Positions 30,601 to 52,300 of a stretch of DNA of 64,000 bases are shown piece by piece. A program made the translations under genes and the position numbers. Numbering within the stretch: position 1 is the first letter of the stretch; each line of letters begins with the position of its first letter. Under the pieces are notes generated by a model. That model was not told the DNA's origin. It worked only from the letters and a program-made list of their open reading frames with translations, and did not search any database. This DNA comes from Rhodothermales bacterium (GTDB taxonomy: Bacteria > Bacteroidota > Rhodothermia > Rhodothermales > Bin80): positions 88,819 to 152,818 of the forward strand of contig OX638318.1 of NCBI GenBank assembly GCA_951812585.1, written 5' to 3'.

Positions 30601-30999
30601 ATGGAGACCTGGTCCAACCACCTTGCAAGTGGAGCTGGACGGGCCATCCTCAAGGAGGCGGTGGTGCGTTTTGAGGACTGGATGGCTTCGCGGCTCAGTC
30701 CCGCAAATGTGCTGCGCGAGTGGCCACTCCTTGGCGCGATGGACAACGGAACCATTGTATCCGGTGTCGCGGATATGATTGTTGAAACCACGCATGGCGT
30801 CTGGATTCTGGATCACAAGTCGGAGAAAGTCAGAAATATCGAGGATTCCTTCAGGAAGCATGGTGCCCAGCTTGATGCCTATATCCATGTGCTTTCGTCT
30901 CAGGGCAAGACCGTACTAGGCGCAGGCATCCACTGGCTGCGCACCGGCCAGATCACCTGGGGGCAGTTCGCCTCGCATATGGTACTCCCCACCCGCTGA
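27661..30999 (+). CDS. AddA/UvrD-type helicase with a C-terminal PD-(D/E)XK nuclease domain
   Basis: 1,112 aa. SF1 motifs present: AGAGSGKTY, VDEFQDTNPLQ, NWRSQ, TWHSAKGLEWPVV and LLYVVLSRPRNKL. The C-terminal nuclease motif is GVADMIVE...WILDHKSEK...QLDAY. Confidence 0.8.
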   Translation: MNREEHTIYRAGAGSGKTYTVQQKLGEWIAEGTVRPDRVLAVTFTEAAALELRERITARLLEDGRLADALKLSQAYISTIHAFGLRLLTEFAFEAGISPRPRLLSDDEKGALIRRALAQSTAADDVAHDLAGYGYTFQWITKRTAADQFRDHLLRALRLLRQIGIADEVRVRQLVAAMEQRLSKDYGDTKKTAALEQALLGSIRTLLQVFPRSWIDFFDATSLGKEPAKAFRRDYSNLKKALGKDALKRDWTLWNNLQKLRTTSTKKLPLPAEYTALADRVKDAAHGLDVHPGPLEQAIALGRILLTTAHDIKGGYQKLKAAAGLVDYMDMNARAEYLLRTQEDVRKTLAARIDCLVVDEFQDTNPLQFALLWALKEAGIPKTLVVGDLKQAIMGFQGADPRLFQALATQHQAKSLPSNWRSQRDLMAIINAFGSVLFGKEYDKLSPEAKPGRLPPLEIAHFPTRPRKDRCRVRAWTIGNRIKALLADETLRIKDRSTKKSRGLRGSDIAVLCPTNFMLKEYAAIFRQLGLHVKYREDGWLASRPVQIVLQALTYLVNPADRHAALYLAATELGEHTLPDALAHLIESHEKPPRIDDAILENLDDLRKKSRQSDGRNNGAGVGVASLSVHTLVARVLQRLKLFDRVMEWPDSEQHRANLIHLLSAAREFTNAEPVAMAHGGLHGSGVPTFLSWLRARTKDEDQQPEKKVLEQDAIVLSTWHSAKGLEWPVVVAAGLHKTVEGRLPDLGFEYASFDDLSQILSAAEIQFSPLYVSPTKNETARAHLDAAARETALRLLYVVLSRPRNKLIIEWPDYLATRSSKAQTYWSLLRTHQCSFDAVQQALSIADVPYACHVIEGDAALPDEDLAAQGAPTRLLSDVGRRAIRPGNAPRDLTLEALYPSDLDQVAGAEADEDTTTDAQTHIDKAYADLPVRTIRYGQGVQLPEHDVAALREVGPNALGVFLHRCFEVLGQRPDLADTMETWSNHLASGAGRAILKEAVVRFEDWMASRLSPANVLREWPLLGAMDNGTIVSGVADMIVETTHGVWILDHKSEKVRNIEDSFRKHGAQLDAYIHVLSSQGKTVLGAGIHWLRTGQITWGQFASHMVLPTR

Positions 31000-31023: not shown

Positions 31024-31108
31024 TGCCTATGCCCATGTGCTTGCTTCTCAGGGCAATTGGGTCTTGGGCACGGGCATCCACTGGATCGCACGGGACCAGT
31101 TACCGTTG
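31024..31108 (+). pseudogene. Degenerate second copy of the last ~28 codons of the helicase gene
   Basis: AYAHVLASQGNWVLGTGIHWIARDQLPL aligns collinearly with AYIHVLSSQGKTVLGAGIHWLRTGQITW (30877-30960). Confidence 0.6.
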
Positions 31109-31252
31109 AGGACGTTGCACCTTGAAGTGCGCTGCTGTACGCAGGTCTGCGGGGGTCAGTCCCTGAGCCAAGGACGCCGGCGCAACTGCGTGATTCCAAA
31201 GTGCCAAAACGTATATTGGCTGGCAACCTCGTGCAACACACACCAATCCGAA

Positions 31253-33720: not shown

Positions 33721-33904
33721 TAAATAAAGCCGGCGCTCAGCGCCGCACATGCCGGGCGCATGGACACGCGCCGCCATGCACCAAGTTGGCCGCAGCTGCA
33801 GCGTGCTCGAATCACTGGCGGCAGAAGCAGAGCTTGCGTGCGGTGGGCGTGGCGTGCGCTTTGAATCCGCAGTCACCAGTCGGATGATATCGACCACTGC
33901 GCCT

Positions 33905-33947
33905 AAAAAGCAAGACGCCCCGGCACCGATTACGGCACCGGGGCGTC
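33905..33947 (-). terminator. Rho-independent terminator of giant gene copy 1
   Basis: A 10-bp GC stem (gacgccccgg/ccggggcgtc) is followed on the minus strand by TTGCTTTTT, about 30 nt after the stop. Confidence 0.7.
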
Positions 33948-33977
33948 TCCCCTATACTCGCTTTGCGAGACGAACCA

Positions 33978-36900
33978 CTACTTGATCAGAACCATCCGAC
34001 CAGTCTCAATGTGCTTGCCGGAGGCACCCGTAGCGACTACTCGGTAGAAGTAGTTGCCCGAAGCCAGGCTTGTTGCATTGAGCTCGACCGTACGGCTGTG
34101 TCCAGCCTCCAGCTCCTGTGCTGGCAGCGTCATCACATTCCGCCCAAGCATGTCAAACACCGTGATGCTCACCTGTGCCGTCTCAGGCAGATCAAATTCA
34201 ATCCGCGTAGACGGGTTGAACGGATTCGGATAGTTGCCCAAGAGCGTAAACTCTGTCGGCAACTCCTCGGTCGCCGCAGCCGTGATGACCTGCGGGAAGA
34301 ACGTGCTACCGTCCATCCCCACGCCCATCATTGTGAGGCCCTCAGCAGCAGATTTGCCAACGCCAGACATGTTAAGCACCAGCGCCTTGTCCGCGTAGCC
34401 ATCCAACTCGAAACGGAAGACCTCGATCTGCGTGGCACCATCAGAGGTTAACACCTCGATGTTGTAGCCGCCCGGATCCAGCGACTTGTACTCGCCCACA
34501 TCGTCAAACGCAAAGTTGTTGATGAACAAGTCGTTGGTCACGCGCGTGTTGTCCACCGGATCCAGCGTGCGGATGTCAATCTCTCCCAATGCGCTCGCAC
34601 CGTGCACCACGTAAAAGTCCACCATGTTGCTGACGCTAGACGCCGTGCGCACATCCTCCCGGATGACCAGACTCACCACGCCGGCCGCCGCGTTACCATG
34701 CGCAATCACATGGTAGTGCTTGTTCCGGTCGAAGCGAACTGGCAGACTCAGTAGCGGCGCGGAGTTGTCCGGCGCAGCAGCAGCGACGATGTCCAGCGTG
34801 TGATTGCCTGCAGCAACGACCCCAAAGGCAAGCGCCGACTGGAACATGAAGTCGTCCGCGACCTTGTTGTCGTCGAGGTAAACATCCACCGTAGCTCCGG
34901 CTACGTTGTGAACGAACTGCACACGCGCCGTGCCTCCAAGGATCGGATCCGCACTGATCGGATTCTGCAGCATGTTCGAAGCAACACCTAGAATGCTGCA
35001 CATACCCAGTTCCAACCCCTCCTGGGTCAGGTTTGGAACGCCGTTGATGAAATCGTTCCCCCGGTTCGAGTCGTCATCCGTCGGGTCGTCGCTAACATCA
35101 TACACGCCAGCCAGACGTGGATTCGTTCCATCGCAGTCCCACTGAACAATACGAAGGCCAGTGATGTCAAAAACGTTCGGCAAATCGTCAGCAACAAGGC
35201 GTACGTTCGGGTCGTGTGCCGGCACAGCATCCAACTCCACCTTCCAGAACATGTCCGCCGCATTATCCAACAACAGATCCGTGCTGTTGCCATTGGCATC
35301 TACATGCCCCACTTCAAGGTTTATCCATTCCATCGAATCCGCCATTGCATCGTGCAGATAGCTCACCGATGCCGTGCCCGTGTTGCCCAGATCGTCAGGG
35401 AACTGCATGATCAGCGGGCGGAAGGAGTCTGGACCATCGCCCTTCGGACTGCCAACAGGGAAGATGTAGCCTGACGTTACTACGCCCCCGGTGGCATCGC
35501 CCTCCTCAATCGCGCGGCTCAGCGTCCCACTGAAGTAGCTGTTACGCGAACCCAACTGGATGACCGCATTGCCACTGCCCGCCGTGATGCGCCCCTCCAG
35601 GGAACTCTCGGGCGACGATTGCGTGATCATCCACCTGTACATTGGATCACCGCCGATGACGCCGTTCTTCAGCATAAGCCTGCCTTCTATGTTCTGACTG
35701 ACATCGCTCATCAGATTCAGCATGCCCGTATCACCGCCTGGATCAGAGGCTACCTCCACATTGCAGAACTGCGACATCGGGCCGCCCATCGATACGTTCG
35801 ACATGCCATTCGTGACAAACCGAACCGTGCCGTTCATGCCCAGCTCATTGGCCGGCATGCTCGCTTCGTCATTCCAGTCACTCGCAGCATCGAAAGCATA
35901 ATCCCCGTACACCGTCAATCCGATCGGTACTGTGTAGCCGTTAATTTCGGTCGATCCGGCGCAATCTCCGGCACTAAACTCGTAGGTAATCATGCTGTCG
36001 GTAGCAACGTGCATTCCGCCCACATGAAAATCGCCCATCGCCATATGAGATCCACCACCCAATGCCACCAGCGAATTGCTTGGCGTCGTCATCGAACCCT
36101 GCATGTAGTCACCAACCACCGACAAGACGTCCCCTGATACGTCCACTTGGCCATCTCCATCCAGCATCATGTCCCCGCCAATCATCAGCGTAACCTGCGG
36201 ATGGCCTCCGCCGCCTCTTCTTCTGCTGTAGTCGATCTCAGACCCGTTGCCAACGGATACGTCCCCACCAATCATCACGTAGTCCACACCCGGGCCAATC
36301 GCTAAGCTGTTGCTCGGCTTCTCGTCGCTGTTTTCTTCCAGCTCGTCGCTGTTTTCTTCCAGCGTAAGACTCGAAAACATCACCTTATCGGCGTTGTTCG
36401 GCGCAATTGGAGCGCTAGTAGTAGTACGAGTACCGCCGGCCAGCACAGTCAAGTGTCCATTGGAAAGAATCATTCCGGGAGGCCACATCCACTCAAGGGC
36501 TTCTTCGTCCGTTCCTGCATCGAGCGCGACCGAGCCTGCAAAGTGGATCATCCCCGCCGTAGCAGTCTTGGCAGCATTCGCTTTAGACGCCTCGTACTCT
36601 TTACGGGCCTCCGCAAACAGCACACGGTGCTCAGGCGTGTCTTCGTAGCGCATCTTGTCCATCGCATCCGCGAGGTCAAAGAACTCGCGGAAGGCCTCGC
36701 CTTTATCTGCGCAGGACACATCGCCCTCGGAGTCACACAGCACAGCGCCGGATGCAACGTCAATCGTGCCGCCGCGGGCTACAAGATCATTGCCCGCAAG
36801 GTCCACCGCGTTACCCTCGGTAACGTTCAGATTCCTGACAGCCGTATATCCTTCGCGCAGCGACAGGGTGACACTCATGCTGGCGGCGCAACTGTTGACA

Positions 36901-39467
36901 TTAACCGTTGTCGGGGTCCGAGCCGCGTCACTTGTGGCAGCCGCAACGGAGGGATACGTCGGAAGAAGATGCTCCGTCGAGGGGTCCATCGTACCCCTAA
37001 ACGTCAGGCTTCCGGTAGTCGCTTCGAATCCACCCTTCGCATCCACCATAGCGTCGCCTACAATCACGCTGCTTGGTGCGGTAAATGGAAAATCGCTTGT
37101 CACAACCAAGGTGCCCCGCTGCAGATTAAGCCTACCCGTGACATTGATACGGCTAGTCAACTCCACCTCGGTAGCCTTGGTGGCCAGGTAGATGTCAAGG
37201 GTTGACAGCGTGATGCCATTATACACTTCATGCCCCGTATCGAAGGAGCCCAAGCTGCCCGTGTACATTACCCTGCTTGGAGTGCGATACGCCCTGGACC
37301 CACTGTCCGTGGTGTATTCCATGTACGCGTTGATCCCCGACCCCCGGTTGATATCGCCCACAGTTCCTGGTGAGCGGTCGATGAGGAGATAGCCCTCATC
37401 TAGATTGAGCATACCGTTGGTGACGAGCTCGCCGCCCATGATGCTGACACCGTCCACAGACACCTCACTGCCCCCAAATATTAGCTCGTTCCTCGTATTC
37501 TTTTTGACTTCCAGCACCAGATTATCCAATGCCAGTGGCATGGGATTGGCGATGGTTTGCGACGTGGAGCCGCTGAATACGATTGCAGCGCCCGAGATGC
37601 CTGGTGCCCCGCTCGAGCAAACATTGGAATAGTCAGGCGAGACCGTACCGGTCGAACGCACCACCTGCTCTGTTGCATCCGTGAGGTCCAGCATACCCCC
37701 TTGCAACTCAAGTGTGCCATTGACCATGGCATGCACTATGGCCACCCCATAGACACCGCCCTGCACAGTCGTCGTCCCGGTCTTGATCGTCCGCCCGTTC
37801 TCGAGCGTCTTCTCGCTCTCGAAGTACGCGCCTCCGTAGCACTGGGGACTCTCTTCTATCTTGTACGTTCCTCCATCGTCCTCGTATCCATCCCCATCAA
37901 CAACCAACTTGTTGGCCATCATCGGCTTCGAGGCATTATTGAGCTCCACGGAGCCTCCTATCGCACCGCCGTTGAAATACACGCCCGTTGTGAGGCCGCG
38001 ACTCGGCAGAATATGCCCGGGAGTGATCGTGCTGTCGCCGGATACTGCATCCACTGCCACTAAGGCTGGATCCACTGTAGGGAGCCGGTTTCCAGAAAAC
38101 CACTTGTCCTCCATTCCGTAGCACTCCACAACAGGATCCGGCAGACTCCTGGTTGTTGTCGCATTTCCGGTTGACGGATCCGTGTAAACAGCAGTTGCAT
38201 CAACCGTGCCAATACCCGTAAGAACAGCGCCTGGCGCGGGGGCTCCCTGACCTTCAATAAATACGTCCCCGGAAATTGTCGTGCGGTCGAATTTCGTCTG
38301 CGCCATACCGCCGCTTCTGAAACTGCCTGAGACGTTGCTGGAGCTCACCCACAGTACGCCGGCCATATTCGTGGACTGGGCACCCGTGCCAAAGTTGGGA
38401 CTGATGCGCACGCCCGCTTGTGTGTCTTTCATCACATCCAAGGCGATCACTCCGTCCCCATTGATCCTGTATGCATGGGAATACTCATTCTCATTCTGCC
38501 ACCCCGAGTACATTGGATATACGTAGACGTAGTCAGCACCATCTTCTTCTGTCTTTATTTCCGTCAGCATCTCCGCCTCCACGCTGATATACAGAGTGCT
38601 GATTCCGTCCGACGTGACCATACCCGAAACGTTGGCTGACGGAAAACCGTCGGGGCCGCCGTAATCGAACATCTCGGCGTAGGCGCTGTCAGCTTCTCCC
38701 ATGGGCCGGGGCGCGTTGAGGTAGAGACCTTTGTCTCCGCTCAGCTCCAGCGTACCCATGACGTCAAGCTCGCCCCAAACCATGATGCCGTTGTCTGCCG
38801 TCCTAGCGGTATTGATAAACCCACCTGTGCATGTGCCCGTAACTTCGACCGTTTTACCTGAGGGGATCTCCAAGCGTTCAAAGTTTGGGCAGGTGCCGTC
38901 GCCGCCGGAGCCGTCGCTTACATCCATCGTCGTGTTCTGATCAATGACGATGTTGCCGCCAAGCGCCGTACGTGTCATATACTCGTTAAACACGCCATAA
39001 ACAGCCTGATCGGTTTCTGTGCCCGCTGGCGCGGTATCACCAAATGCGATCGTTCCAGACCTCAGGTAGAGCGTAGAGCGCTCATATTCCCGATAGAACG
39101 TCAACGAACCAGCGGTGAAGGTCAGGTTGCCCTGTATCGTCAAATCACCCTCGACCATGTGGTACTTGCTATTAGACGAGGTCTTATAAAGCAGCAGCGT
39201 TGTTTCGTCGTTTACAGTGAGGTGTTCCTGAACGAATACGCTGGAGCTTGTACCGCGGATGCGCACGGCTACGGTATCCTCATCCGCCATGCCTTGAGTT
39301 ATCGTCAAGCACGGCGCATCAAACGTGCAGTCCGCGGCAGTACCGTCCCCGTCGGCCGGATCAACGTAAGCAATGGTTTCTACTTGCCCAAACGCTGTCC
39401 CAGAAAACATCCCGCCAAGCAGCATCAGTGCCGCCACGGCAAGACCGAGAGTTGTAAAGTTCTTCAT
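33978..39467 (-). CDS. Giant T9SS-sorted surface protein, paralogue 1 (1,829 aa)
   Basis: ATG preceded by GGAGGGGG. Signal peptide LAVAALMLLGGMFSGTAFGQ. I recognise no domain in the first ~1,400 aa. Two DUF4397-like modules (ARVQFVHNVAGATVDVYLDD..., VDFYVVHGASALGEIDIR...) precede the T9SS tail (NYPNPFNPSTRIEFDL...GNYFYRV...MVLIK). Confidence 0.85.
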   Translation of the reverse strand: MKNFTTLGLAVAALMLLGGMFSGTAFGQVETIAYVDPADGDGTAADCTFDAPCLTITQGMADEDTVAVRIRGTSSSVFVQEHLTVNDETTLLLYKTSSNSKYHMVEGDLTIQGNLTFTAGSLTFYREYERSTLYLRSGTIAFGDTAPAGTETDQAVYGVFNEYMTRTALGGNIVIDQNTTMDVSDGSGGDGTCPNFERLEIPSGKTVEVTGTCTGGFINTARTADNGIMVWGELDVMGTLELSGDKGLYLNAPRPMGEADSAYAEMFDYGGPDGFPSANVSGMVTSDGISTLYISVEAEMLTEIKTEEDGADYVYVYPMYSGWQNENEYSHAYRINGDGVIALDVMKDTQAGVRISPNFGTGAQSTNMAGVLWVSSSNVSGSFRSGGMAQTKFDRTTISGDVFIEGQGAPAPGAVLTGIGTVDATAVYTDPSTGNATTTRSLPDPVVECYGMEDKWFSGNRLPTVDPALVAVDAVSGDSTITPGHILPSRGLTTGVYFNGGAIGGSVELNNASKPMMANKLVVDGDGYEDDGGTYKIEESPQCYGGAYFESEKTLENGRTIKTGTTTVQGGVYGVAIVHAMVNGTLELQGGMLDLTDATEQVVRSTGTVSPDYSNVCSSGAPGISGAAIVFSGSTSQTIANPMPLALDNLVLEVKKNTRNELIFGGSEVSVDGVSIMGGELVTNGMLNLDEGYLLIDRSPGTVGDINRGSGINAYMEYTTDSGSRAYRTPSRVMYTGSLGSFDTGHEVYNGITLSTLDIYLATKATEVELTSRINVTGRLNLQRGTLVVTSDFPFTAPSSVIVGDAMVDAKGGFEATTGSLTFRGTMDPSTEHLLPTYPSVAAATSDAARTPTTVNVNSCAASMSVTLSLREGYTAVRNLNVTEGNAVDLAGNDLVARGGTIDVASGAVLCDSEGDVSCADKGEAFREFFDLADAMDKMRYEDTPEHRVLFAEARKEYEASKANAAKTATAGMIHFAGSVALDAGTDEEALEWMWPPGMILSNGHLTVLAGGTRTTTSAPIAPNNADKVMFSSLTLEENSDELEENSDEKPSNSLAIGPGVDYVMIGGDVSVGNGSEIDYSRRRGGGGHPQVTLMIGGDMMLDGDGQVDVSGDVLSVVGDYMQGSMTTPSNSLVALGGGSHMAMGDFHVGGMHVATDSMITYEFSAGDCAGSTEINGYTVPIGLTVYGDYAFDAASDWNDEASMPANELGMNGTVRFVTNGMSNVSMGGPMSQFCNVEVASDPGGDTGMLNLMSDVSQNIEGRLMLKNGVIGGDPMYRWMITQSSPESSLEGRITAGSGNAVIQLGSRNSYFSGTLSRAIEEGDATGGVVTSGYIFPVGSPKGDGPDSFRPLIMQFPDDLGNTGTASVSYLHDAMADSMEWINLEVGHVDANGNSTDLLLDNAADMFWKVELDAVPAHDPNVRLVADDLPNVFDITGLRIVQWDCDGTNPRLAGVYDVSDDPTDDDSNRGNDFINGVPNLTQEGLELGMCSILGVASNMLQNPISADPILGGTARVQFVHNVAGATVDVYLDDNKVADDFMFQSALAFGVVAAGNHTLDIVAAAAPDNSAPLLSLPVRFDRNKHYHVIAHGNAAAGVVSLVIREDVRTASSVSNMVDFYVVHGASALGEIDIRTLDPVDNTRVTNDLFINNFAFDDVGEYKSLDPGGYNIEVLTSDGATQIEVFRFELDGYADKALVLNMSGVGKSAAEGLTMMGVGMDGSTFFPQVITAAATEELPTEFTLLGNYPNPFNPSTRIEFDLPETAQVSITVFDMLGRNVMTLPAQELEAGHSRTVELNATSLASGNYFYRVVATGASGKHIETGRMVLIK
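36321..36362 (-). repeat. In-frame 21-bp tandem duplication encoding LEENSDE x2
   Basis: ctcgtcgctgttttcttccag occurs twice. The same duplication is at 44511-44552 and 51723-51764 in copies 2 and 3. It lies at the upstream edge of the second hypervariable patch. Confidence 0.9.
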
Positions 39468-40245
39468 GTGTTCAGCCCCCTCCGGGGCGGTTGGTTAACA
39501 CAAACCAGGGCTGGCACCTCCAGCACACCGGCATTCAGGCGGTAGCAGCCCTGGCATTCGGGTCCTACCGCTACGTGTCTACTACACAGCAGTTCGCATG
39601 CATGCGTAACGTGCGCACGAAAAAAAAACCAGCACCCGAATCCTGCAATTCGGCTACGATTCCGTCACGCTTCGTAGCATCAACCCCGCCAAAACCGTTG
39701 GCGCACCAGCTGCAGGCAAGCCTTCGGCCCGGTCACAATGCTGACGCACTACGCGTAGCGCTACTGCAACAGCTAAATATAGGAATCCGCAACAACAATA
39801 CGCCACAGCGCGGATCATCGCACAAGGTATCAACGCACTGGCAATTCCGTTTCACAAGAAATCAACAATCAACAGTGATTAAGCCGCACGCTGCGCGCGC
39901 CGACGAGCACCTGAACGCTCCGTGTGCTGGGAACATTGGCCATCAGCGCGCAAACAGGGCCACTGCCGCGGGCCTATTGACTCTGCTGCTACTTTTCCGC
40001 ACGCTGCTTGCTGTGATGCGCGAACGTTGAAGCTTGTGCCGAAGAGGTTCCGCGTAGCACACAGGGAATCGCCATTCCCCTTGCGCAGCATTTGTGCCTT
40101 GCACAGATCCAGATAGCGCCACGCAGGCAAACGCGCAAAAAGGTGCGCCTGTGTGTGCGCTACCTTTCCTTCGTGAACCGCCTCAGCGGTGTGTGCCAAC
40201 AAAAATGAGACAAATTCGCCTCGGATTTAGTGTAGCGGATGGAAC

Positions 40246-41370
40246 TCATGTGGGCAGTAACTGGTCGCGTGTGACTACGAAGTTGCGGGACTGGCGGCCA
40301 TTGCTCTTGGCTACGAGCTTCACCGCAGCCTGGGGGTCGTCTGGCGGGTTGATCCACACCTTCCGCGGTGGCATGGGTACCTTGGGCATCCCCCGAATGA
40401 ATCGCTCCGGTTCTCGCGCATAGGCTTCCTGCATGACGCGCTGTCGCGCCTTCCATACCTCGCGCGTCTTGCCGTAGTGGATCGTCGAGGGATGCATCAG
40501 CGCAATCCCCGTGTGGTAGAATTCGTTGTTGTACCAATGGAAGAAGAGCCGCGCCCAGCTCCGGGCGTCCTCCAGGGAGCCGAAGCGCACCTCGTAAGTC
40601 CGGTGGTACTTCGCCGTGCGGAAGTGCGCCTCCGAATAGGGATGGTCGTTCGAGCGATACGGACGGCTGTAGGAGCCTTCCACTCCCAGCTCTGCCAACA
40701 GCTGCACATACGTCTTGCTTGTCATCACCGGGCCGCGATCCGAATGGAGGACCAGCTGGTCTCTTCGGACGTTTTGACGCGCGCATGTGGCCAGGACGAG
40801 ATCCTTGGCCAGCGCGGCAGACTCAAACGAGGCAAGGGTCCATCCCACCACGTAGCGGCTGAAGACATCCCGTAGCACGTAGCGCTTGAAGTGCAGGCCC
40901 TTAACCGGGCCCCGAAGCGTGGTGATGTCCCACGTCCAAAGCTCGTTCGGAGCTTGGGCCAACCACTCCGGCTTCGTGTACGGAGGATGTACGCGCTGAT
41001 TCCTGCGCTCGCGTATCGCCCTGTTTTCACTAAGGATACGATACATGGTGCGCCAGTGGCACAGGTAGGTGCCTTCATCCAGGAGCGTGGCCCAGATCTG
41101 GCGTGGCGGCAGGTCCACAAAACGCCTCGCGTTCAATATCGCCCGAATCTCCGCCCGGCGAGCTTCCGACAACCGTCGGCTGCTCTGGCGACGCCGCTTC
41201 GGCTGCTGCTGCGCCGCACGTTGACTTCTGTAATAGGAGGCGCGAGAGATCCCCACGTGGCGGCAGGCCGCCACCGTACCCAGAATCGGACGCAATGCCT
41301 TGACCCTCTCCCTCATCGCTACCCGGCCTCGCTCTCGCTGCTGATGCCAAAGAGCATGCAGACTTTTTTT
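40246..41370 (-). CDS. IS3 transposase OrfB (DDE integrase core; expressed by -1 frameshift from orfA)
   Basis: The slippery run of 8 A on the coding strand is at 41364-41371 (A AAA AAA G). OrfB contains LWTWDITTL..., HSDRGPVMTS and YSEAHFRTAKY..., a DD(35)E-type core. Confidence 0.8.
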   Translation of the reverse strand, partial: KKSLHALWHQQRERGRVAMRERVKALRPILGTVAACRHVGISRASYYRSQRAAQQQPKRRRQSSRRLSEARRAEIRAILNARRFVDLPPRQIWATLLDEGTYLCHWRTMYRILSENRAIRERRNQRVHPPYTKPEWLAQAPNELWTWDITTLRGPVKGLHFKRYVLRDVFSRYVVGWTLASFESAALAKDLVLATCARQNVRRDQLVLHSDRGPVMTSKTYVQLLAELGVEGSYSRPYRSNDHPYSEAHFRTAKYHRTYEVRFGSLEDARSWARLFFHWYNNEFYHTGIALMHPSTIHYGKTREVWKARQRVMQEAYAREPERFIRGMPKVPMPPRKVWINPPDDPQAAVKLVAKSNGRQSRNFVVTRDQLLPT

Positions 41371-41720
41371 TGAACCTCTATGATGGCCTCGGCCTTCTGA
41401 AGCTGCTGCCGGGACTGACCAAGCGCCTTGCGCAGCCGCCGAATCTCCTCGTCCTTGGCCAACAGTTCCTTCCCAGCCTGGGTCGAACCATAAAGCGCTC
41501 CATATTCGCGCTGCTTGCGCCACTGGGCCAGATGAGACGAGTAAAGGCCTTCCCGACGCAAAAGCGCACCGACCTCTCCAGGCTTGCTGCAGAGCTCGGC
41601 CTCGTCCAGAATGCGCATCTTGTAACTGGCCGTGAACCTGCGGCGCTTGGCCTTGGGAACCACTTCAGTCGGAGGGACCTCTGCCGTACCGGTCGTGTTG
41701 GAAGGGTAATCGGATTCCAT
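41319..41720 (-). CDS. IS3 transposase OrfA (HTH)
   Basis: MESDYPS...KRRRFTASYKMRILDEAE...LLRREGLYSSHLAQWRKQ is typical of IS3 OrfA. It ends just after the QKKV slippery site. Confidence 0.8.
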   Translation of the reverse strand: MESDYPSNTTGTAEVPPTEVVPKAKRRRFTASYKMRILDEAELCSKPGEVGALLRREGLYSSHLAQWRKQREYGALYGSTQAGKELLAKDEEIRRLRKALGQSRQQLQKAEAIIEVQKKVCMLFGISSESEAG

Positions 41721-42097
41721 GATTGAATAGGGGAAAATGATGGATTGGTTAAGCAAAATCGCCAGACCAGCCCTGCCGCTTGAACCCCAACGCGGCTACA
41801 CTATTAATGTATTGAACTGTCTCACTTCTTATTGGCACAGAGGGCAGTGACGACTAAGCGACGTCAAAGCGATATAAGGCAAGTGTAGAATTTATTGCCC
41901 CATCTTTGCTGCGTAAATAAAGCCGGCGCTCAGCGCCGCACATGCCGGGCGCATGGACACGCGCCGCCATGCACCAAGTTGGCCGCAGCTGCAGCGTGCT
42001 CGAATCACTGGCGGCAGAAGCAGAGCTTGCGTGCGGTGGGCGTGGCGTGCGCTTTGAATCCGCAGCCACCAGTCGGATGATATCGACCACTGCGCCT

Positions 42098-42140
42098 AAA
42101 AAGCAAGACGCCCCGGCACCGATTACGGCACCGGGGCGTC
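42098..42140 (-). terminator. Rho-independent terminator of giant gene copy 2
   Basis: Same hairpin and T tract as 33905-33947. Confidence 0.7.
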
Positions 42141-42170
42141 TCCCCTATACTCGCTTTGCGAGACGAATCA

Positions 42171-45100
42171 CTACTTGATCAGAACCATCCGACCAGTCTC
42201 AATGTGTTTGCCGGAGGCACCCGTAGCGACTACTCGGTAGAAGTAGTTGCCCGAAGCCAGGCTTGTTGCATTGAGCTCGACCGTACGGCTGTGTCCAGCC
42301 TCCAGCTCCTGTGCTGGCAGCGTCATCACATTCCGTCCAAGCATGTCAAACACCGTGATGCTCACCTGTGCCGTCTCAGGCAGATCAAATTCAATCCGCG
42401 TAGACGGGTTGAACGGATTCGGATAGTTGCCCAAGAGCGTAAACTCTGTCGGCAACTCCTCGGTCGCCGCAGCCGTGATGACCTGCGGGAAGAACGTGCT
42501 ACCGTCCATCCCCACGCCCATCATTGTGAGGCCCTCAGCAGCAGATTTGCCAACGCCAGACATGTTAAGCACCAGCGCCTTGTCCGCGTAGCCATCCAAC
42601 TCGAAACGGAAGACCTCGATCTGCGTGGCACCATCAGAGGTTAACACCTCGATGTTGTAGCCGCCCGGATCCAGCGACTTGTACTCGCCCACATCGTCAA
42701 ACGCAAAGTTGTTGATGAACAAGTCGTTGGTCACGCGCGTGTTGTCCACCGGATCCAGCGTGCGGATGTCAATCTCTCCCAATGCGCTCGCACCGTGCAC
42801 CACGTAAAAGTCCACCATGTTGCTGACGCTGGACGCCGTGCGCACATCCTCCCGGATGACCAGACTCACCACGCCGGCCGCCGCGTTACCATGCGCAATC
42901 ACATGGTAGTGCTTGTTCCGGTCGAAGCGAACTGGCAGACTCAGTAGCGGCGCGGAGTTGTCCGGCGCAGCAGCAGCGACGATGTCCAGCGTGTGATTGC
43001 CTGCAGCAACGACCCCAAAGGCAAGCGCCGACTGAAACATGAAGTCGTCCGCGACCTTGTTGTCGTCGAGGTAAACATCCACCGTAGCTCCGGCTACGTT
43101 GTGAATGAACTGCACACGCGCCGTGCCTCCAAGGATCGGATCCGCACTGATCGGATTCTGCAGCATGTTCGAAGCAACACCTAGAATGCTGCACATACCC
43201 AGTTCCAACCCCTCCTGGGTCAGGTTTGGAACGCCGTTGATGAAATCGTTCCCCCGGTATGAGTCGTCATCCGTCGGGTCGGCGCTAACATCATACACGC
43301 CAGCCAGACGTGGATTCGTTCCATCGCAGTCCCACTGAACAATACGAAGGCCCGTGATGTCAAAAACGTTCGGCAAATCGTCAGCAACAAGGCGTACGTT
43401 CGGGTCGTGTGCCGGCACAGCATCCAACTCCACCTTCCAGAACATGTCCGCCGCATTATCCAACAACAGATCCGTGCTGTTGCCATTGGCATCTACATGC
43501 CCCACTTCAAGGTTTATCCATTCCATCGAATCCGCTATTGCATCGTGCAGATAGCTCACCGATGCCATGCCCGTGTTGCCCAGATCGTCAGGGAACTGCA
43601 TGATCAGCGGGCGGAAGGAGTCTGGACCATCGCCCTTCGGACTGCCAACAGGGAAGATGTAGCCTGACGTTACTACGCCCCCGGTGGCATCGCCCTCCTC
43701 AATCGCGCGGCTCAGCGTCCCACTGAAGTAGCTGTTACGCGAACCCAACTGGATGACCGCATTGCCACTGCCCGCCGTGATGCGCCCCTCCAGGGAACTC
43801 TCGGGCGACGATTGCGTGATCATCCACCTGTACATTGGATCACCGCCGATGACGCCGTTCTTCAGCATAAGCCTGCCTTCTATGTTCTGACTGACATCGC
43901 TCATCAGATTCAGCATGCCCGTATCACCGCCTGGATCAGAGGCTACCTCCACATTGCAGAACTGCGACATCGGGCCGCCCATCGATACGTTCGACATGCC
44001 ATTCGTGACAAACCGAACCGTGCCGTTCATGCCCAGCTCATTGGCCGGCATGCTCGCTTCGTCATTCCAGTCACTCGCAGCATCGAAAGCATAATCCCCG
44101 TACACCGTCAATCCGATCGGTACTGTGTAGCCGTCAAGTTCGATCGATCCGGCGCAATCTTCGGCACTAAACTCGTAGGTAATCATGCTGTCGGTAGCAA
44201 CGTGCATTCCGCCCACATGAAAATCGCCCATCGCCATATGAGATCCACTAACCAAGTCCACCAACGAATTGCCTGGCGTCGTCATCGAACCCTGCATGTA
44301 GTCACCAGCCACCGACAAGACATCCCCGAATAAGTTCACCCTGCCATCTCCATCCAGCATCATGTCCCCGCCAATCATCAGCGTAGTCTGCGGATGGCCT
44401 CCGCCGCGGCCGCTTCTGACCAAGATCGAAGACCCGTTGCCAACGGATACGTCCCCGCCAATCATCACGTAGTCCACACCCGAGCTAATCGTTAAGACGT
44501 TGCTCGACTCCTCGTCGCTGTTTTCTTCCAGCTCGTCGCTGTTTTCTTCCAGCGTAAGACTCGAAAACATCACCTTATCGGCGTTGTTCGGCGCAATTGG
44601 AGCCGTAGTAGTAGAAAGAGTACCGCCGGCCTGCACAATCAAGTGTCCATTGGAAAGAATCATTCCGGGAGGCCACATCCACTCAAGGGCTTCTTCGTCC
44701 GTTCCTGCATCGAGCGCGACCGAGCCTGCAAAGTGGATCATCCCCGCCGTAGCAGTCTTGGCAGCGTTCGCTTTAGACGCCTCGTACTCTTTACGGGCCT
44801 CCGCAAACAGCACACGGTGCTCAGGCGTGTCTTCGTAGCGCATCTTGTCCATCGCATCCGCGAGGTCAAAGAACTCGCGGAAGGCCTCGCCTTTACCTGC
44901 GCAGGACACATCGCCCTCGGAGTCACACAGCACAGCGCCGGGTGCAACGTCAATCGTGCCGCCGCGGGCTACAAGATCATTGCCCGCAAGGTCCACCGCG
45001 TTACCCTCGGTAACGTTCAGATTCCTGACAGCCGTATATCCTTCGCGCAGCGACAGGGTGACACTCATGCTGGCGGCGCAACTGTTGACATTAACCGTTG

Positions 45101-47675
45101 TCGGGGTCCGAGCCGCGTCACTTGTGGCAGCCGCAACGGAGGGATACGTCGGAAGAAGATGCTCCGTCGAGGGGTCCATCGTACCCCTAAACGTCAGGCT
45201 TCCGGTAGTCGCTTCGAATCCACCCTTCGCATCCACCATAGCGTCGCCTACAATCACGCTGCTTGGTGCGGTAAATGGAAAATCGCTTGTCACAACCAAG
45301 GTGCCCCGCTGCAGATTAAGCCTATCCGTGACATTGATACGGCTAGTCAACTCCACCTCGGTAGCCTTGGTGGCCAGGTAGATGTCAAGGGTTGACAGCG
45401 TGATGCCATTATACACTTCATGCCCCGTATCGAAGGAGCCCAAGCTGCCCGTGTACATTACCCTGCTTGGAGTGCGATACGCCTTGGACCCACTGTCCGT
45501 GGTGTATTCCATGTACGCGTTGATCCCCGACCCCCGGTTGATATCGCCCACAGTTCCTGGTGAGCGGTCGATGAGGAGATAGCCCTCATCTAGATTGAGC
45601 ATACCGTTGGTGACGAGCTCGCCGCCCATGATGCTGACACCGTCCACAGACACCTCACTGCCCCCAAATATTAGCTCGTTCCTCGTATTCTTTTTGACTT
45701 CCAGCACCAGATTATCCAATGCCAGTGGCATGGGATTGGCGATGGTTTGCGACGTGGAGCCGCTGAATACGATTGCAGCGCCCGAGATGCCTGGTGCCCC
45801 GCTCGAGCAAACATTGGAACCGTCAGGCGAGACCGTACCGGTCGAACGCACCACCTGCTCTGTTGCAGCCGTGAGGTCCAGCATACCCCCTTGCAACTCA
45901 AGTGTGCCATTGACCATGGCATGCACTATGGCCACCCCATAGACACCGCCCTGCACAGTCGTCGTCCCGGTCTTGATCGTCCGCCCGTTCTCGAGCGTCT
46001 TCTCGCTCTCGAAGTACGCGCCTCCGTAGCACTGGGGACTCTCTTCTATCTTGTACGTTCCTCCATCGTCCTCGTATCCATCCCCATCAACAACCAACTT
46101 GTTGGCCATCATCGGCTTCGAGGCATTATTGAGCTCCACGGAGCCTCCTATCGCACCGCCGTTGAAATACACGCCCGTTGTGAGGCCGCGACTCGGCAGA
46201 ATATGCCCGGGAGTGATCGTGCTGTCGCCGGATACTGCATCCACTGCCACTAAGGCTGGATCCACTGTAGGGAGCCGGTTTCCAGAAAACCACTTGTCCT
46301 CCATTCCGTAGCACTCCACAACAGGATCCGGCAGACTCCTGGTTGTTGTCGCATTTCCGGTTGACGGATCCGTGTAAACAGCAGTTGCATCAACCGTGCC
46401 AATACCCGTAAGAACAGCGCCTGGCGCGGGGGCTCCCTGACCTTCAATAAATACGTCCCCGGAAATTGTCGTGCGGTCGAATTTCGTCTGCGCCATACCG
46501 CCGCTTCTGAAACTGCCTGAGACGTTGCTGGAGCTCACCCACAGTACGCCGGCCATATTCGTGGACTGGGCACCCGTGCCAAAGTTGGGACTGATGCGCA
46601 CGCCCGCTTGTGTGTCTTTCATCACATCCAAGGCGATCACTCCGTCCCCATTGATCCTGTATGCATGGGAATACTCATTCTCATTCTGCCACCCCGAGTA
46701 CATTGGATATACGTAGACGTAGTCAGCACCATCTTCTTCTGTCTTTATTTCCGTCAGCATCTCCGCCTCCACGCTGATATACAGAGAGCTGATTCCGTCC
46801 GACGTGACCATACCCGAAACGTTGGCTGACGGAAACCCGTTGGGGCCGCCGTAATCGAACATCTTGGCGTAGGCGCTGTCAGCTTCTCCCATGGGCCGGG
46901 GCGCGTTGAGGTAGAGACCTTTGTCTCCGCTCAGCTCCAGCGTACCCATGACGTCAAGCTCGCCCCAAACCATGATGCCGTTGTCTGCCGTCACAGGGGT
47001 GCCATCGCCCGGATTGATAAACCCACCTGTGCATGTGCCCGTAACTTCGACCGTTACACCTGAGGGGATCTCCAAGCGTTCAAAGTTTGGGCAGGTGCCG
47101 TCGCCGCCGGAGCCGTCGCTTACATCCATCGTCGTGTTCTGATCAATGACGATGTTGCCGCCAAGCGCCGTACGTGTCATGTACTCGTTAAACACGCCAT
47201 AATCAGTCTGATCGGAAAGGGTACCTATATCTGTGCCCGCTGGCGCGGTATCACCAAATGCGATCGTTCCAGACCTCAGGTAGAGCGTAGAGCGCTCATA
47301 TTCCCGATAGAACGTCAACGAACCACCGGTGAAGGTCAGGTTGCCCTGTATCGTCAAGTTACCCTCGACCATGTGGTACTCACTATTAGACGAGGTCTTA
47401 TAAAGCAGCAGCGTTATGTCGTCGCTTACAGAGAGGTGTTCCTGAACGAATACGCTGGAGCTTGTACCGCGGATGCGCACGGCTACGGTATCCGCACCCG
47501 AAACCGCCATGCCTTGAGTTATCGTCAAGCACGGCGCATCAAACGTACATGCCGTGGCAGTGCCATCCCCGTCGGCCGGATCAACGTAAGCTTGCCCAAA
47601 CGCTGTCCCAGAAAACATCCCGCCAAGCAGAACCAGCGCCGCCACGGCAAAACCGTGAGTTGTAACGTTCCTCAT
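42171..47675 (-). CDS. Giant T9SS-sorted surface protein, paralogue 2 (1,834 aa)
   Basis: Same architecture as copy 1 and an intact ORF. It differs mainly in two patches. Confidence 0.85.
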   Translation of the reverse strand: MRNVTTHGFAVAALVLLGGMFSGTAFGQAYVDPADGDGTATACTFDAPCLTITQGMAVSGADTVAVRIRGTSSSVFVQEHLSVSDDITLLLYKTSSNSEYHMVEGNLTIQGNLTFTGGSLTFYREYERSTLYLRSGTIAFGDTAPAGTDIGTLSDQTDYGVFNEYMTRTALGGNIVIDQNTTMDVSDGSGGDGTCPNFERLEIPSGVTVEVTGTCTGGFINPGDGTPVTADNGIMVWGELDVMGTLELSGDKGLYLNAPRPMGEADSAYAKMFDYGGPNGFPSANVSGMVTSDGISSLYISVEAEMLTEIKTEEDGADYVYVYPMYSGWQNENEYSHAYRINGDGVIALDVMKDTQAGVRISPNFGTGAQSTNMAGVLWVSSSNVSGSFRSGGMAQTKFDRTTISGDVFIEGQGAPAPGAVLTGIGTVDATAVYTDPSTGNATTTRSLPDPVVECYGMEDKWFSGNRLPTVDPALVAVDAVSGDSTITPGHILPSRGLTTGVYFNGGAIGGSVELNNASKPMMANKLVVDGDGYEDDGGTYKIEESPQCYGGAYFESEKTLENGRTIKTGTTTVQGGVYGVAIVHAMVNGTLELQGGMLDLTAATEQVVRSTGTVSPDGSNVCSSGAPGISGAAIVFSGSTSQTIANPMPLALDNLVLEVKKNTRNELIFGGSEVSVDGVSIMGGELVTNGMLNLDEGYLLIDRSPGTVGDINRGSGINAYMEYTTDSGSKAYRTPSRVMYTGSLGSFDTGHEVYNGITLSTLDIYLATKATEVELTSRINVTDRLNLQRGTLVVTSDFPFTAPSSVIVGDAMVDAKGGFEATTGSLTFRGTMDPSTEHLLPTYPSVAAATSDAARTPTTVNVNSCAASMSVTLSLREGYTAVRNLNVTEGNAVDLAGNDLVARGGTIDVAPGAVLCDSEGDVSCAGKGEAFREFFDLADAMDKMRYEDTPEHRVLFAEARKEYEASKANAAKTATAGMIHFAGSVALDAGTDEEALEWMWPPGMILSNGHLIVQAGGTLSTTTAPIAPNNADKVMFSSLTLEENSDELEENSDEESSNVLTISSGVDYVMIGGDVSVGNGSSILVRSGRGGGHPQTTLMIGGDMMLDGDGRVNLFGDVLSVAGDYMQGSMTTPGNSLVDLVSGSHMAMGDFHVGGMHVATDSMITYEFSAEDCAGSIELDGYTVPIGLTVYGDYAFDAASDWNDEASMPANELGMNGTVRFVTNGMSNVSMGGPMSQFCNVEVASDPGGDTGMLNLMSDVSQNIEGRLMLKNGVIGGDPMYRWMITQSSPESSLEGRITAGSGNAVIQLGSRNSYFSGTLSRAIEEGDATGGVVTSGYIFPVGSPKGDGPDSFRPLIMQFPDDLGNTGMASVSYLHDAIADSMEWINLEVGHVDANGNSTDLLLDNAADMFWKVELDAVPAHDPNVRLVADDLPNVFDITGLRIVQWDCDGTNPRLAGVYDVSADPTDDDSYRGNDFINGVPNLTQEGLELGMCSILGVASNMLQNPISADPILGGTARVQFIHNVAGATVDVYLDDNKVADDFMFQSALAFGVVAAGNHTLDIVAAAAPDNSAPLLSLPVRFDRNKHYHVIAHGNAAAGVVSLVIREDVRTASSVSNMVDFYVVHGASALGEIDIRTLDPVDNTRVTNDLFINNFAFDDVGEYKSLDPGGYNIEVLTSDGATQIEVFRFELDGYADKALVLNMSGVGKSAAEGLTMMGVGMDGSTFFPQVITAAATEELPTEFTLLGNYPNPFNPSTRIEFDLPETAQVSITVFDMLGRNVMTLPAQELEAGHSRTVELNATSLASGNYFYRVVATGASGKHIETGRMVLIK

Positions 47676-49355: not shown

Positions 49356-49385
49356 TCCCCTATACTCGCTTTGCGAGACGAATCA

Positions 49386-52300
49386 CTACTTGATCAGAAC
49401 CATCCGACCAGTCTCAATGTGTTTGCCGGAGGCACCCGTAGCGACTACTCGGTAGAAGTAGTTGCCCGAAGCCAGGCTTGTTGCATTGAGCTCGACCGTA
49501 CGGCTGTGTCCAGCCTCCAGCTCCTGTGCTGGCAGCGTCATCACATTCCGTCCAAGCATGTCAAACACCGTGATGCTCACCTGTGCCGTCTCAGGCAGAT
49601 CAAATTCAATCCGCGTAGACGGGTTGAACGGATTCGGATAGTTGCCCAAGAGCGTAAACTCTGTCGGCAACTCCTCGGTCGCCGCAGCCGTGATGACCTG
49701 CGGGAAGAACGTGCTACCGTCCATCCCCACGCCCATCATTGTGAGGCCCTCAGCAGCAGATTTGCCAACGCCAGACATGTTAAGCACCAGCGCCTTGTCC
49801 GCGTAGCCATCCAACTCGAAACGGAAGACCTCGATCTGCGTGGCACCATCAGAGGTTAACACCTCGATGTTGTAGCCGCCCGGATCCAGCGACTTGTACT
49901 CGCCCACATCGTCAAACGCAAAGTTGTTGATGAACAAGTCGTTGGTCACGCGCGTGTTGTCCACCGGATCCAGCGTGCGGATGTCAATCTCTCCCAATGC
50001 GCTCGCACCGTGCACCACGTAAAAGTCCACCATGTTGCTGACGCTGGACGCCGTGCGCACATCCTCCCGGATGACCAGACTCACCACGCCGGCCGCCGCG
50101 TTACCATGCGCAATCACATGGTAGTGCTTGTTCCGGTCGAAGCGAACTGGCAGACTCAGTAGCGGCGCGGAGTTGTCCGGCGCAGCAGCAGCGACGATGT
50201 CCAGCGTGTGATTGCCTGCAGCAACGACCCCAAAGGCAAGCGCCGACTGAAACATGAAGTCGTCCGCGACCTTGTTGTCGTCGAGGTAAACATCCACCGT
50301 AGCTCCGGCTACGTTGTGAATGAACTGCACACGCGCCGTGCCTCCAAGGATCGGATCCGCACTGATCGGATTCTGCAGCATGTTCGAAGCAACACCTAGA
50401 ATGCTGCACATACCCAGTTCCAACCCCTCCTGGGTCAGGTTTGGAACGCCGTTGATGAAATCGTTCCCCCGGTATGAGTCGTCATCCGTCGGGTCGGCGC
50501 TAACATCATACACGCCAGCCAGACGTGGATTCGTTCCATCGCAGTCCCACTGAACAATACGAAGGCCCGTGATGTCAAAAACGTTCGGCAAATCGTCAGC
50601 AACAAGGCGTACGTTCGGGTCGTGTGCCGGCACAGCATCCAACTCCACCTTCCAGAACATGTCCGCCGCATTATCCAACAACAGATCCGTGCTGTTGCCA
50701 TTGGCATCTACATGCCCCACTTCAAGGTTTATCCATTCCATCGAATCCGCTATTGCATCGTGCAGATAGCTCACCGATGCCATGCCCGTGTTGCCCAGAT
50801 CGTCAGGGAACTGCATGATCAGCGGGCGGAAGGAGTCTGGACCATCGCCCTTCGGACTGCCAACAGGGAAGATGTAGCCTGACGTTACTACGCCCCCGGT
50901 GGCATCGCCCTCCTCAATCGCGCGGCTCAGCGTCCCACTGAAGTAGCTGTTACGCGAACCCAGCTGGATGACCGCACTGTCACTGCCCGCCGTGATGCGC
51001 CCCTCCAGGGAATTCTCGGGCGACGGTTGCGTGATCATCCACCTGTACATTGGATCACCGCCGATGACGCCGTTCTTCAGCATAAGCCTGCCTTCTATGT
51101 TCTGACTGACATCGCTCATCAGATTCAGCATGCCCGTATCACCACCTGGATCAGAGGCTACCTCCACATTGCAGAACTGCGACATCGGGCCGCCCATCGA
51201 TACGTTCGACATGCCATTCGTGACAAACCGAACCGTGCCGTCCATGCCCAGCTCATTGGCCGGCATGCTCGCCTTGTCATTCCAGTCACTCGCAGCATCG
51301 AAAGCATAATCCCCGTACACCGTCAATCCGATCGGTACTGTGTAGCCGTTAAGTTCGGTCGATCCGGCGCAATCTCCGGCACCAAACTCGTAGGTAATCA
51401 TGCTGTCGGTAGCAACGTGCATTCCGCCCACATGAAAATCGCCCATCGCCATATGAGATCCACCACCCAATGCCACCAGCGAATTGCCTGGCGTCGTCAT
51501 CGAACCCTGCATGTAGTCACCAGCTACCGACAAGACATGACCGGATACGATCACCCTGCCATCTCCATCCAGCATCATGTCCCCGCCAATCATCAGCGTA
51601 GTCTGCGGATGGCCTCCGGCGCGGCTTCTGACCCAGATCGAAGACCCGTTGCCAACGGATACGTCCCCGCCAATCATCACGTAGTCCACACCCAAGCCAG
51701 TCGTTAAGCTGTTGCTCGGCTTCTCGTCGCTGTTTTCTTCCAGCTCGTCGCTGTTTTCTTCCAGCGTAAGACTCGAAAACATCACCTTATCGGCGTTGTT
51801 CGGCGCAATTGGAGCCGTAGTAGTAGAAAGAGTACCGCCGGCCTGCACAATCAAGTGTCCATTGGAAAGAATCATTCCGGGAGGCCACATCCACTCAAGG
51901 GCTTCTTCGTCCGTTCCTGCATCGAGCGCGACCGAGCCTGCAAAGTGGATCATCCCCGCCGTAGCAGTCTTGGCAGCATTCGCTTTAGACGCCTCGTACT
52001 CTTTACGGGCCTCCGCAAACAGCACACGGTGCTCAGGCGTGTCTTCGTAGCGCATCTTGTCCATCGCATCCGCGAGGTCAAAGAACTCGCGGAAGGCCTC
52101 GCCTTTATCTGCGCAGGACACATCGCCCTCGGAGTCACACAGCACAGCGCCGGATGCAACGTCAATCGTGCCGCCGCGGGCTACAAGATCATTGCCCGCA
52201 AGGTCCACCGCGTTACCCTCGGTAACGTTCAGATTCCTGACAGCCGTATATCCTTCGCGCAGCGACAGGGTGACACTCATGCTGGCGGCGCAACTGTTGA

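Follow-up and report, generated by a model that had tools for sequence, protein, structure and literature searches.

The keeping of several versions of an exposed surface by recombination is already familiar in bacteria. The Opa proteins of Neisseria are small 8-stranded outer-membrane beta-barrels encoded at paralogous loci, in which a conserved framework carries two exposed hypervariable segments (HV1 and HV2), mosaic alleles are made by recombination, and a pentamer repeat within the sequence coding for the signal peptide drives phase variation. Pertactin of Bordetella is the passenger of a single-copy type V autotransporter, a surface beta-helix with polymorphic protruding loops; these loops hold short in-frame tandem repeats whose copy number depends on the strain. 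In Borrelia vlsE/vls, Anaplasma msp2 and Neisseria pilE/pilS, one expression site is accompanied by many promoterless partial donor cassettes, and the target proteins of diversity-generating retroelements (DGRs) show localised hypervariability in a ligand-binding surface. The adhesin domains of Porphyromonas gingivalis Kgp, RgpA and HagA owe their diversity to gene conversion, the exchange of alleles and the rearrangement of domains, and their differences lie in exposed loops, where they are proposed to change binding or immune recognition (PMC5266723). A more general account describes islands of divergence that resist homogenisation under interlocus gene conversion, either through selection or through divergence itself (PMC3728101). 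Here, we analyse a tandem triplet of genes for an ~1,830-residue protein, and a hypervariable patch within them, in a 64,000-nucleotide stretch of a Rhodothermales genome (contig OX638318.1, positions 88,819 to 152,818), hereafter called the window.

The three copies are all read from the minus strand. Copy 1 occupies window positions 33978..39467 (1829 residues; identified from the open reading frame list and its translation together with Pfam and NCBIfam matches), copy 2 occupies 42171..47675 (1834 residues; 95.5% identical to copy 1 by tblastn), and copy 3 occupies 49386..54875 (1829 residues; 95.0%). Self-BLAST within the window and flank alignments place each gene in a repeat unit of 6.4-6.7 kb on the same strand, the units being ~97.2% identical: unit 1 at 33721..40099, comprising the gene with ~630 bp upstream and ~257 bp downstream, unit 2 at 41845-48486 and unit 3 at 49060-55713. 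Every copy is full-length, with its own start codon, ~630-bp upstream flank, signal-peptide-like N-terminus and terminator-like hairpin. In copy 1, this intrinsic-terminator-like hairpin has a 17-bp stem and stands directly 3' of the stop codon (33912..33949, minus strand); it falls within the repeat unit, so there is one per copy. For comparison, we used two metagenome alleles, m1 (L001, 1822 residues) and m2 (L002), so that five alleles were compared. The explanation we favour, and regard as probable, is that the triplet has undergone concerted evolution by gene conversion, with old copy-specific alleles persisting on one exposed face of a beta-solenoid.

The original prediction had proposed two discrete variable modules in this protein, the second of them a patch at 35940-36470 around a duplicated acidic heptad, with ~650 nearly unchanged residues upstream of it. 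The three genes were aligned over 5523 nucleotide columns, 216 of which are variable, and a sliding-window count along this alignment revealed two variable clusters, at nt 1-1080 and nt ~3000-3650. Among the three copies, 57 of the 531 columns at 35940-36470 are variable (10.7%), against 9 of 1887 (0.48%) in the core, from residue 370 to the patch, and 20 of 1962 (1.0%) in the downstream part (Fisher p = 1.3e-29 for patch versus core and p = 9e-24 for patch versus downstream). The differences are therefore clustered and not uniform, as had been anticipated, and the upstream stretch is indeed almost constant among the copies. All the peptide strings quoted in the prediction were found as written, and the equivalent DNA that it placed at ~44130-44660 and ~51342-51872 agrees with our mapping of the patch. 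By variable-column counts, the patch in copy 1 runs from 35940 to 36449 (35940..36449, minus strand; residues 1007-1176), and copies 2 and 3 have their equivalents at 44133-44639 and 51348-51851, respectively. Variable nucleotides within it are clumped, with 19 adjacent pairs where 6.0 +/- 2.2 were expected, and all inter-copy indels are multiples of 3 nt.

The patch consists of two sub-patches, residues 1007-1018 and residues 1050-1176, split by an invariant island of 31 codons (residues 1019-1049) that contains the LEENSDE repeat. In the first sub-patch (36414..36449, minus strand), copy 1 reads TVLAGGTRTTTS and copies 2 and 3 read IVQAGGTLSTTT; copy 1 stands apart from the other two and has states in common with m2. 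The second begins with a variable strand directly past the repeat loop, KPSNSLAIGP (36291..36320, minus strand; residues 1050-1059), in a segment that is insertion-prone in the wider family (occupancy 0.40). It continues, on the same strand, through the third strand and long turn of coil 1, SEIDYSRRRGGGGHPQV (36192..36242; residues 1076-1092), where nine residues are variable and two 3-nt indels fall in a loop of low model confidence. In the third strand and turn of coil 2, QVDVSGD (36129..36149; residues 1107-1113), 5 of 7 residues vary, with up to three states among the copies and more in m2. The third strand and turn of coil 3, SNSLVALGG (36054..36080; residues 1130-1138), carry the copy 2 variants D, V and S, of which D1135 and V1137 are common to m2. 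The last variable cluster, SAGDCAGSTEIN, is the turn and strand past coil 4 (35940..35975; residues 1165-1176), again in a loop that is insertion-prone in the family (occupancy 0.30).

To place these differences in three dimensions, we relied on an AlphaFold2 model of residues 960-1510 built from a 54-sequence family alignment (mean predicted local distance difference test score (pLDDT) 89.3, predicted template-modelling score 0.90), which replaced an unusable single-sequence AlphaFold model of residues 900-1510 (pLDDT 39). Residues ~1053-1200 are modelled as stacked coils of three strands each, every strand being 3-5 residues long, followed by a beta-sandwich. As predicted by this model, the patch covers approximately five coils of a three-stranded beta-solenoid, or parallel beta-helix. 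The first strands of the coils (YVMI, TLMI, VLSV, SHMA) and the second strands (VSV, MML, YMQ, FHV) are invariant, and it is the third strand with the turn that follows it (SLAIG, SEIDY with RRRGG, QVD with VSGD, LVA with LGG, TYE with FSAG, and STEI) that bears the changes. Variable residues make up 22 of the 48 positions in third strands and turns and 2 of the 67 in the rest of the coils (p = 1.8e-8), so that the replacements would lie on a single solenoid face. Residues private to m2 within the solenoid follow the same pattern (12/48 versus 1/67 elsewhere, p = 1e-4), and those at positions 1080, 1081, 1083, 1086, 1092, 1107, 1110, 1111, 1113 and 1167 match the variable sites; across the five alleles, three or four residue states occur at each such site. 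Family conservation is lower at the variable sites (0.22 versus 0.34, p = 8e-4), which coincide with indel-prone loops. The conserved family motifs, PNxAD, hMhGGD, GGHPQ, GDYxQG and GxHxxMGDFxVG, are the scaffold.

The duplicated heptad proved to be located exactly where it had been predicted. It is a perfect tandem repeat of two 21-bp units encoding LEENSDE-LEENSDE (36321..36362, minus strand; copy 1 residues 1036-1049) and is identical in the three copies; Tandem Repeats Finder places the 21-bp x 2.0 repeat, perfect in each, at 36321-36363, 44511-44553 and 51723-51765. The number of units varies between alleles: by DNA alignment, m1, a short contig of 5.8 kb, has exactly one. An N-gap in the m2 scaffold begins inside the repeat. 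The LEENSDE loop corresponds to a dip in confidence at residues 1040-1049 (model residues 81-90) and is acidic and, by the model, disordered; a second dip falls on the RRRGGGG loop at residues 1080-1089.

The ages of the different parts of the gene can be read from their silent differences. Among the copies, the proportion of silent differences (pS) is 0.047-0.074 in residues 1066-1176 and 0-0.002 in the 1.9-kb core (Fisher p = 3e-5 and 1.4e-3). This homogenised core (36450..38372, minus strand; residues 366-1006) has 8 variable codon columns out of 641. Its near-zero silent divergence implies that the cores of the three copies coalesced very recently, and the value lies below the neutral baseline, because the noncoding flanks of the copies diverge by 0-4.3% (1.3-4.3% upstream and 0-1.9% downstream in flank alignments). 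In the patch, pS stands at the inter-strain level, meaning that the copies are as far apart there as they are from the allele of another strain. A comparison of copy 1 with m2 gave pS 0.043, a proportion of replacement differences (pN) of 0.103 and a replacement-to-silent rate ratio (omega, dN/dS) of ~2.4 for residues 366-880; pS 0.075, pN 0.101 and omega ~1.4 for residues 1066-1176; and pS 0.042, pN 0.010 and omega 0.23 for residues 1331-1829. Over residues 366-1006, the core is ~9% divergent from m2 (L002:1-2640), with 129 replacement and 20 silent changes (omega ~2.1-2.4), an excess of replacements that is significant (binomial p = 6e-4). Between strains, dN/dS thus exceeds 1 in the body up to residue ~1330, and the C-terminal part, with its DUF4397 and C-terminal sorting domain, is under purifying selection. 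These sequence comparisons suggest that diversifying selection between strains acts on the whole exposed body and not on the patch alone.

These rates change how the two modules should be understood. The mapping of variation to one face, the recurrent multi-state sites and an excess of replacements in the patch (36 replacement to 4 silent codon columns, versus 11:8 in the C-terminal third; p = 0.012) all speak for the proposed diversification. What does not stand is the notion of discrete modules set around an intrinsically conserved core, since the core has pN 0.103 and omega ~2.4 against m2. Because the core diverges from m2 yet is almost free of silent differences between copies (0-0.2%), the modules look discrete in this genome largely as a footprint of recent gene conversion of the core, and their outlines do not chart where the protein is or is not free to vary. 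Two discrete modules in a conserved protein would then be largely a within-genome illusion, produced by recent homogenisation that affected the central 1.9 kb and the greater part of the 3' third. Likewise, the patch is not intrinsically faster than the core and stands out mostly through the recent erasure of neighbouring differences.

The order of the differences along the gene also points to exchange among the copies. The identity of the odd copy out changes in 63 runs where 106 were expected, a value reached in 0 of 10,000 permutations; within the patch alone, there are 24 runs where 32 were expected (p = 0.008). When m2 is added, sites at which the alleles divide two against two switch blockwise: copies 2 and 3 are opposed to copy 1 and m2 at residues 1007-1092, copies 1 and 3 to copy 2 and m2 at residues 1110-1137, copies 1 and 2 to copy 3 and m2 at residues 1165-1305, and copies 2 and 3 again to copy 1 and m2 at residues 1375-1818. 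Therefore, no single tree fits the gene, and this is the hallmark that interlocus gene conversion or recombination leaves. Near-identity of the core below the neutral baseline and blockwise incompatible sites, the two marks of concerted evolution, thus both appear to be present in the alignment. A simple unequal crossover that left copy 2 as a hybrid of the outer copies was also considered and rejected as the origin of the pattern; it fits the N-terminal part, where copies 1 and 2 are alike, and the C-terminal part, where copies 2 and 3 are the same, but misfits the upstream flanks, where copies 1 and 3 are alike, and the patch blocks private to copy 2. Because of these misfits, we retain it only as one contributing event.

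We propose that the core and most of the 3' third owe their uniformity to recent interlocus gene conversion, or unequal recombination, between the tandem copies, and that the patch and the N-terminal module escaped. The escape could be due to selection for three versions of the face or to divergence itself blocking conversion. Short-tract exchange would meanwhile reshuffle variants among the copies, and slippage would alter the number of 21-bp repeats. A cell could then display several variants of a recognition surface, which might help it to evade phages, grazers and other binders or to bind a broader range of ligands; this functional benefit is inference only.

Several points weigh against this explanation. 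Only five alleles were compared, and m1 and m2, as metagenome contigs from short reads, could represent chimeras or collapsed sequences. With three sequences, the conversion tracts cannot be polarised, and the chance end of a conversion tract may be an alternative to selection for different copies. In the structural argument, the exposure of side chains and the solenoid's handedness are inferred from secondary structure and confidence alone. Lastly, the pairwise dN/dS of the patch between copies (1.0-1.8) does not by itself exceed 1 significantly, a result that leaves room for relaxed constraint.

Relaxed constraint, by which tolerant surface loops, gene conversion and drift would together yield the pattern with no selection for diversity, is the best surviving alternative, although we consider it unlikely. 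Alongside the patch dN/dS, it can draw on the position of the variable sites, which are the least conserved and most indel-prone in the wider family, and on the silent density of the patch, whose excess over the C-terminal third is not significant (p = 0.28). Drift in tolerant loops does not readily explain why inter-strain dN/dS of the body is significantly greater than 1, why the same positions hold three to four different residues across five alleles, or why the patch pN of 0.05-0.10 exceeds the divergence of the noncoding flanks (0-0.043).

Less likely still is a recent triplication followed by positive selection on new point mutations in the two modules, with the core as a constrained scaffold. 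If all parts of the copies were of the same age, the silent divergence of the patch should not exceed that of the core by a factor of 20-40 (p = 3e-5), and a constrained core should not show pN 0.10 and omega ~2.4 against m2. Replacements do far exceed silent changes in the patch (36:4), many of its codons have two or three nucleotide changes, and the variation is confined to one structural face, all as point mutation under selection would have it. Several patch variants are nevertheless shared with the m2 lineage in blocks, and they must for that reason predate the present arrangement of the copies.

We also weighed the possibility that the copies, or the differences between them, result from mis-assembly or strain mixture in a metagenome-derived genome. 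The source contig appears to be present in European Nucleotide Archive (ENA) metagenome collections as well, and the breaks in related short-read assemblies fall exactly in this gene, but such an artefact is very improbable: the three open reading frames are intact over 5.5 kb with every indel a multiple of 3 nt, the spacers between the copies are unique and different (an IS3 element in one and a segment of ~480 bp in the other), and the differences follow protein structure in a way that sequencing or assembly error would not. Programmed diversification, either by a DGR targeting the patch or by antigenic variation from an expression site and silent cassettes, is scarcely credible despite the sharp localisation of the variation and its clumped multi-nucleotide changes, given that the substitution classes (AG 15, CT 12, GT 7, AC 7, CG 6, AT 3) reveal no adenine-specific pattern and none of the copies carries A at these variable positions, that tblastn and self-BLAST found three full genes only and no template-like copy or partial cassette in the window, that a 12-mer scan of the variant segments found no ectopic donors, that no reverse transcriptase was present among the ~23 larger window open reading frames scanned with Pfam, and that the three genes are complete with their own flanks and terminators. 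Both the DGR target and the silent-cassette candidates were rejected on these grounds.

The non-homologous matches in the 12-mer scan were chance single hits and a 17-nt self-similarity of the MIGGD coils. In copies 2 and 3, the first MIGGD coil matches the second, ~87 nt away, over 17 nt of DNA as the result of one silent GGT>GGC change (36171-36187 and 36258-36274, and homologous positions); this identity could be due to micro-conversion between coils or to chance. Antisense open reading frames over the patch (e.g., 35619-36137; 172, 173 and 226 residues across the copies) are taken as spurious. The N-terminal variable module (38373-39467; copy 1 residues 1-365) has 130 variable columns out of 1143, with several in-frame indels of 3-12 nt, and its pS and pN among the copies are 0.036-0.057 and 0.036-0.065. 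Copy 3 is the odd one out in this module, unlike in the C-terminal third.

Copy 1 begins with a signal-peptide-like N-terminus, MKNFTTLGLAVAALMLLGGMFSGTAFGQ, which by eye resembles a Sec signal peptide with its basic residue, hydrophobic core and AFG-Q. A long beta-rich body follows, then DUF4397 at residues 1514-1633 and Por_Secre_tail at residues 1746-1814 (PF18962, 34.4 bits with a cut-off of 27; TIGR04183, 33.3 bits with a cut-off of 23). DUF4397 and this C-terminal sorting domain of the type IX secretion system (T9SS), both exceeding their curated cut-offs, are the only recognised domains, and the C-terminal sorting domain marks the ~1,830-residue protein as a predicted T9SS type A cargo. 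An exhaustive HMMER search with residues 301-1500 returned 97 representatives at E<=1e-3, 63 of them at E<=1e-30, with 30-47% identity. Most are 1,700-2,000 residues long and share the ending of DUF4397 and C-terminal sorting domain, and none is functionally named; one example, P0015, is 43% identical across query residues 13-1200. By sequence, the three window proteins are members of an uncharacterised ~1,800-residue DUF4397/T9SS family. A word-indexed protein search gave only one cluster at >90% identity, composed of the three window proteins and metagenome fragments, and scans of genome and metagenome contig collections with the protein found no relatives.

Searches for a relative of the body outside this family gave no significant match. 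Pfam matched none of three body segments, even at E<=10, and a sequence profile search of the PDB yielded chance nanobody matches only. Foldseek found no significant match in the PDB (best E=0.085, TM 0.18-0.24), and a search of BFVD found no significant relative (best E=0.0066, TM 0.14). The best of the weak structural matches were generic beta-helices, namely tailspikes, adhesins and S-layer proteins. We therefore rejected membership in the pectate-lyase-like, tailspike or autotransporter beta-helix families, for which there was no significant sequence or structure match. A type V autotransporter of the pertactin kind was likewise rejected, the C-terminus being DUF4397 and Por_Secre_tail, with no autotransporter or Pertactin domain by Pfam.

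In three of the three other genomes checked (L083-L085), the homologue is single-copy with the same architecture, so the triplication is lineage-specific. One of them (L085:10001-18631) has a 38%-identical single-copy homologue followed by genes for a GWxTD-domain protein and lysyl-tRNA synthetase (LysS). This gene order is kept in the window, where the GWxTD and LysS genes lie at 13262-16539, with ~17 kb interposed that hold a cadherin gene, an AddAB-like pair and a GH16 T9SS cargo. The cadherin gene, a second giant surface-type gene positioned between the GWxTD/LysS genes and the AddAB-like pair (16979-22291, minus strand), encodes 1770 residues with multiple cadherin and Big_9 domains and 25 consecutive glycines. 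The AddAB-like pair (24770-30999, plus strand), a recombination-repair helicase-nuclease system ~3 kb from the array, comprises a 964-residue PD-(D/E)XK protein and a 1112-residue UvrD-helicase with a C-terminal PD-(D/E)XK domain; its closeness to the array is probably coincidental. The GH16 protein, at 31037-33094 near the array, also bears a T9SS C-terminal domain. The PurA of the window is at best 63% identical to PurA of metagenome-assembled Rhodothermales genomes, which makes the organism a deeply diverging relative of these bacteria.

The spacer between copies 1 and 2 holds an IS3-family transposase pair with HTH_Tnp_1 and rve domains (40246..41756, minus strand), assigned from Pfam and the unit boundaries. 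Its open reading frames overlap, suggestive of a frameshift, and a search for flanking terminal inverted repeats of 14 bp or longer found none. The spacer between copies 2 and 3 is a different segment of ~480 bp (48486-48967) with no IS3 element. The upstream flanks compared (39468-40099, 47676-48300 and 54876-55520) differ in a poly-T tract ~130 nt 5' of the ATG, which is two T shorter in copy 2, in a 7-bp repeat, AATCAAC, with two units in copies 1 and 3 and one in copy 2, and in a 16-bp duplication at 54997-55028 in copy 3. Such differences could alter the expression of individual copies. Just past the upstream flank of copy 3 are type IV secretion or conjugation genes (56036-57841 and 58830-59966, both minus strand) of the VirD4/TraG-like coupling protein and VirB9/CagX-like types. 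As these genes start beyond that flank, the array may border an integrative conjugative element.

Concerted evolution of the triplet, with old alleles persisting on one face, would provide a structurally mapped example of a Bacteroidota/Rhodothermia-like environmental bacterium that keeps several versions of an exposed protein face by means of tandem duplication, homogenising conversion and the persistence of old alleles on one solenoid sheet. It also carries a lesson, in that a conserved core among paralogues can be a footprint of conversion and not of functional constraint. In addition, our analysis flags an uncharacterised family of giant T9SS cargo, with ~100 representatives at the 50% identity level and a body dN/dS >1, as one that could well serve as phage receptor or adhesin in an arms race. 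A bolder claim, that the triplet is a working surface-variation repertoire with ongoing short-tract conversion among the copies and slippage of the 21-bp repeat under phage or host pressure, we hold to be doubtful. Were it true, this ~1,800-residue family would be a major positively selected determinant of what binds these cells, with omega ~2 over >1,000 residues and new combinations arising on the receptor or recognition face of an unstudied beta-solenoid fibre.

The protein is not a member of the Opa, pertactin or P. gingivalis adhesin families, and these are analogues in how the pattern works. It shares localised hypervariability with DGR targets, from which it differs in having no adenine-specific pattern and no template repeat in the window. 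As in the segmental conversion systems of Borrelia, Anaplasma and Neisseria pili, there is short-tract blockwise exchange and there are mosaic hypervariable regions between conserved sequence; unlike them, the locus has three complete genes, and no partial cassettes were found in the window. The resemblance to conversion islands lies in paralogues that are homogenised over most of their length with divergent islands left, although that pattern is a general one, described mostly for eukaryotic gene pairs and not for a bacterial surface system. With the P. gingivalis cargo, the triplet has in common T9SS surface proteins, paralogous repeats that break short-read assemblies and diversity made by recombination. 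The P. gingivalis proteins, in contrast, are built of cleaved-adhesin/DUF2436 modules at dispersed loci and are diversified by whole-domain shuffling, whereas here a single-face solenoid patch varies in otherwise identical tandem genes. The triplet may be likened to Opa in its several paralogues, shared framework, variation in two exposed segments and mosaic reshuffling; it is unlike Opa in being a 1,830-residue T9SS beta-solenoid cargo encoded at tandem loci, in which the 21-bp repeat keeps the reading frame and no repeat that would shift it was found. Judging from the model, the likeness to pertactin would be one of polymorphism on the loops of an exposed parallel beta-helix, including an in-frame repeat of varying number, but here secretion relies on a T9SS C-terminal domain and the diversity is kept as three paralogues.

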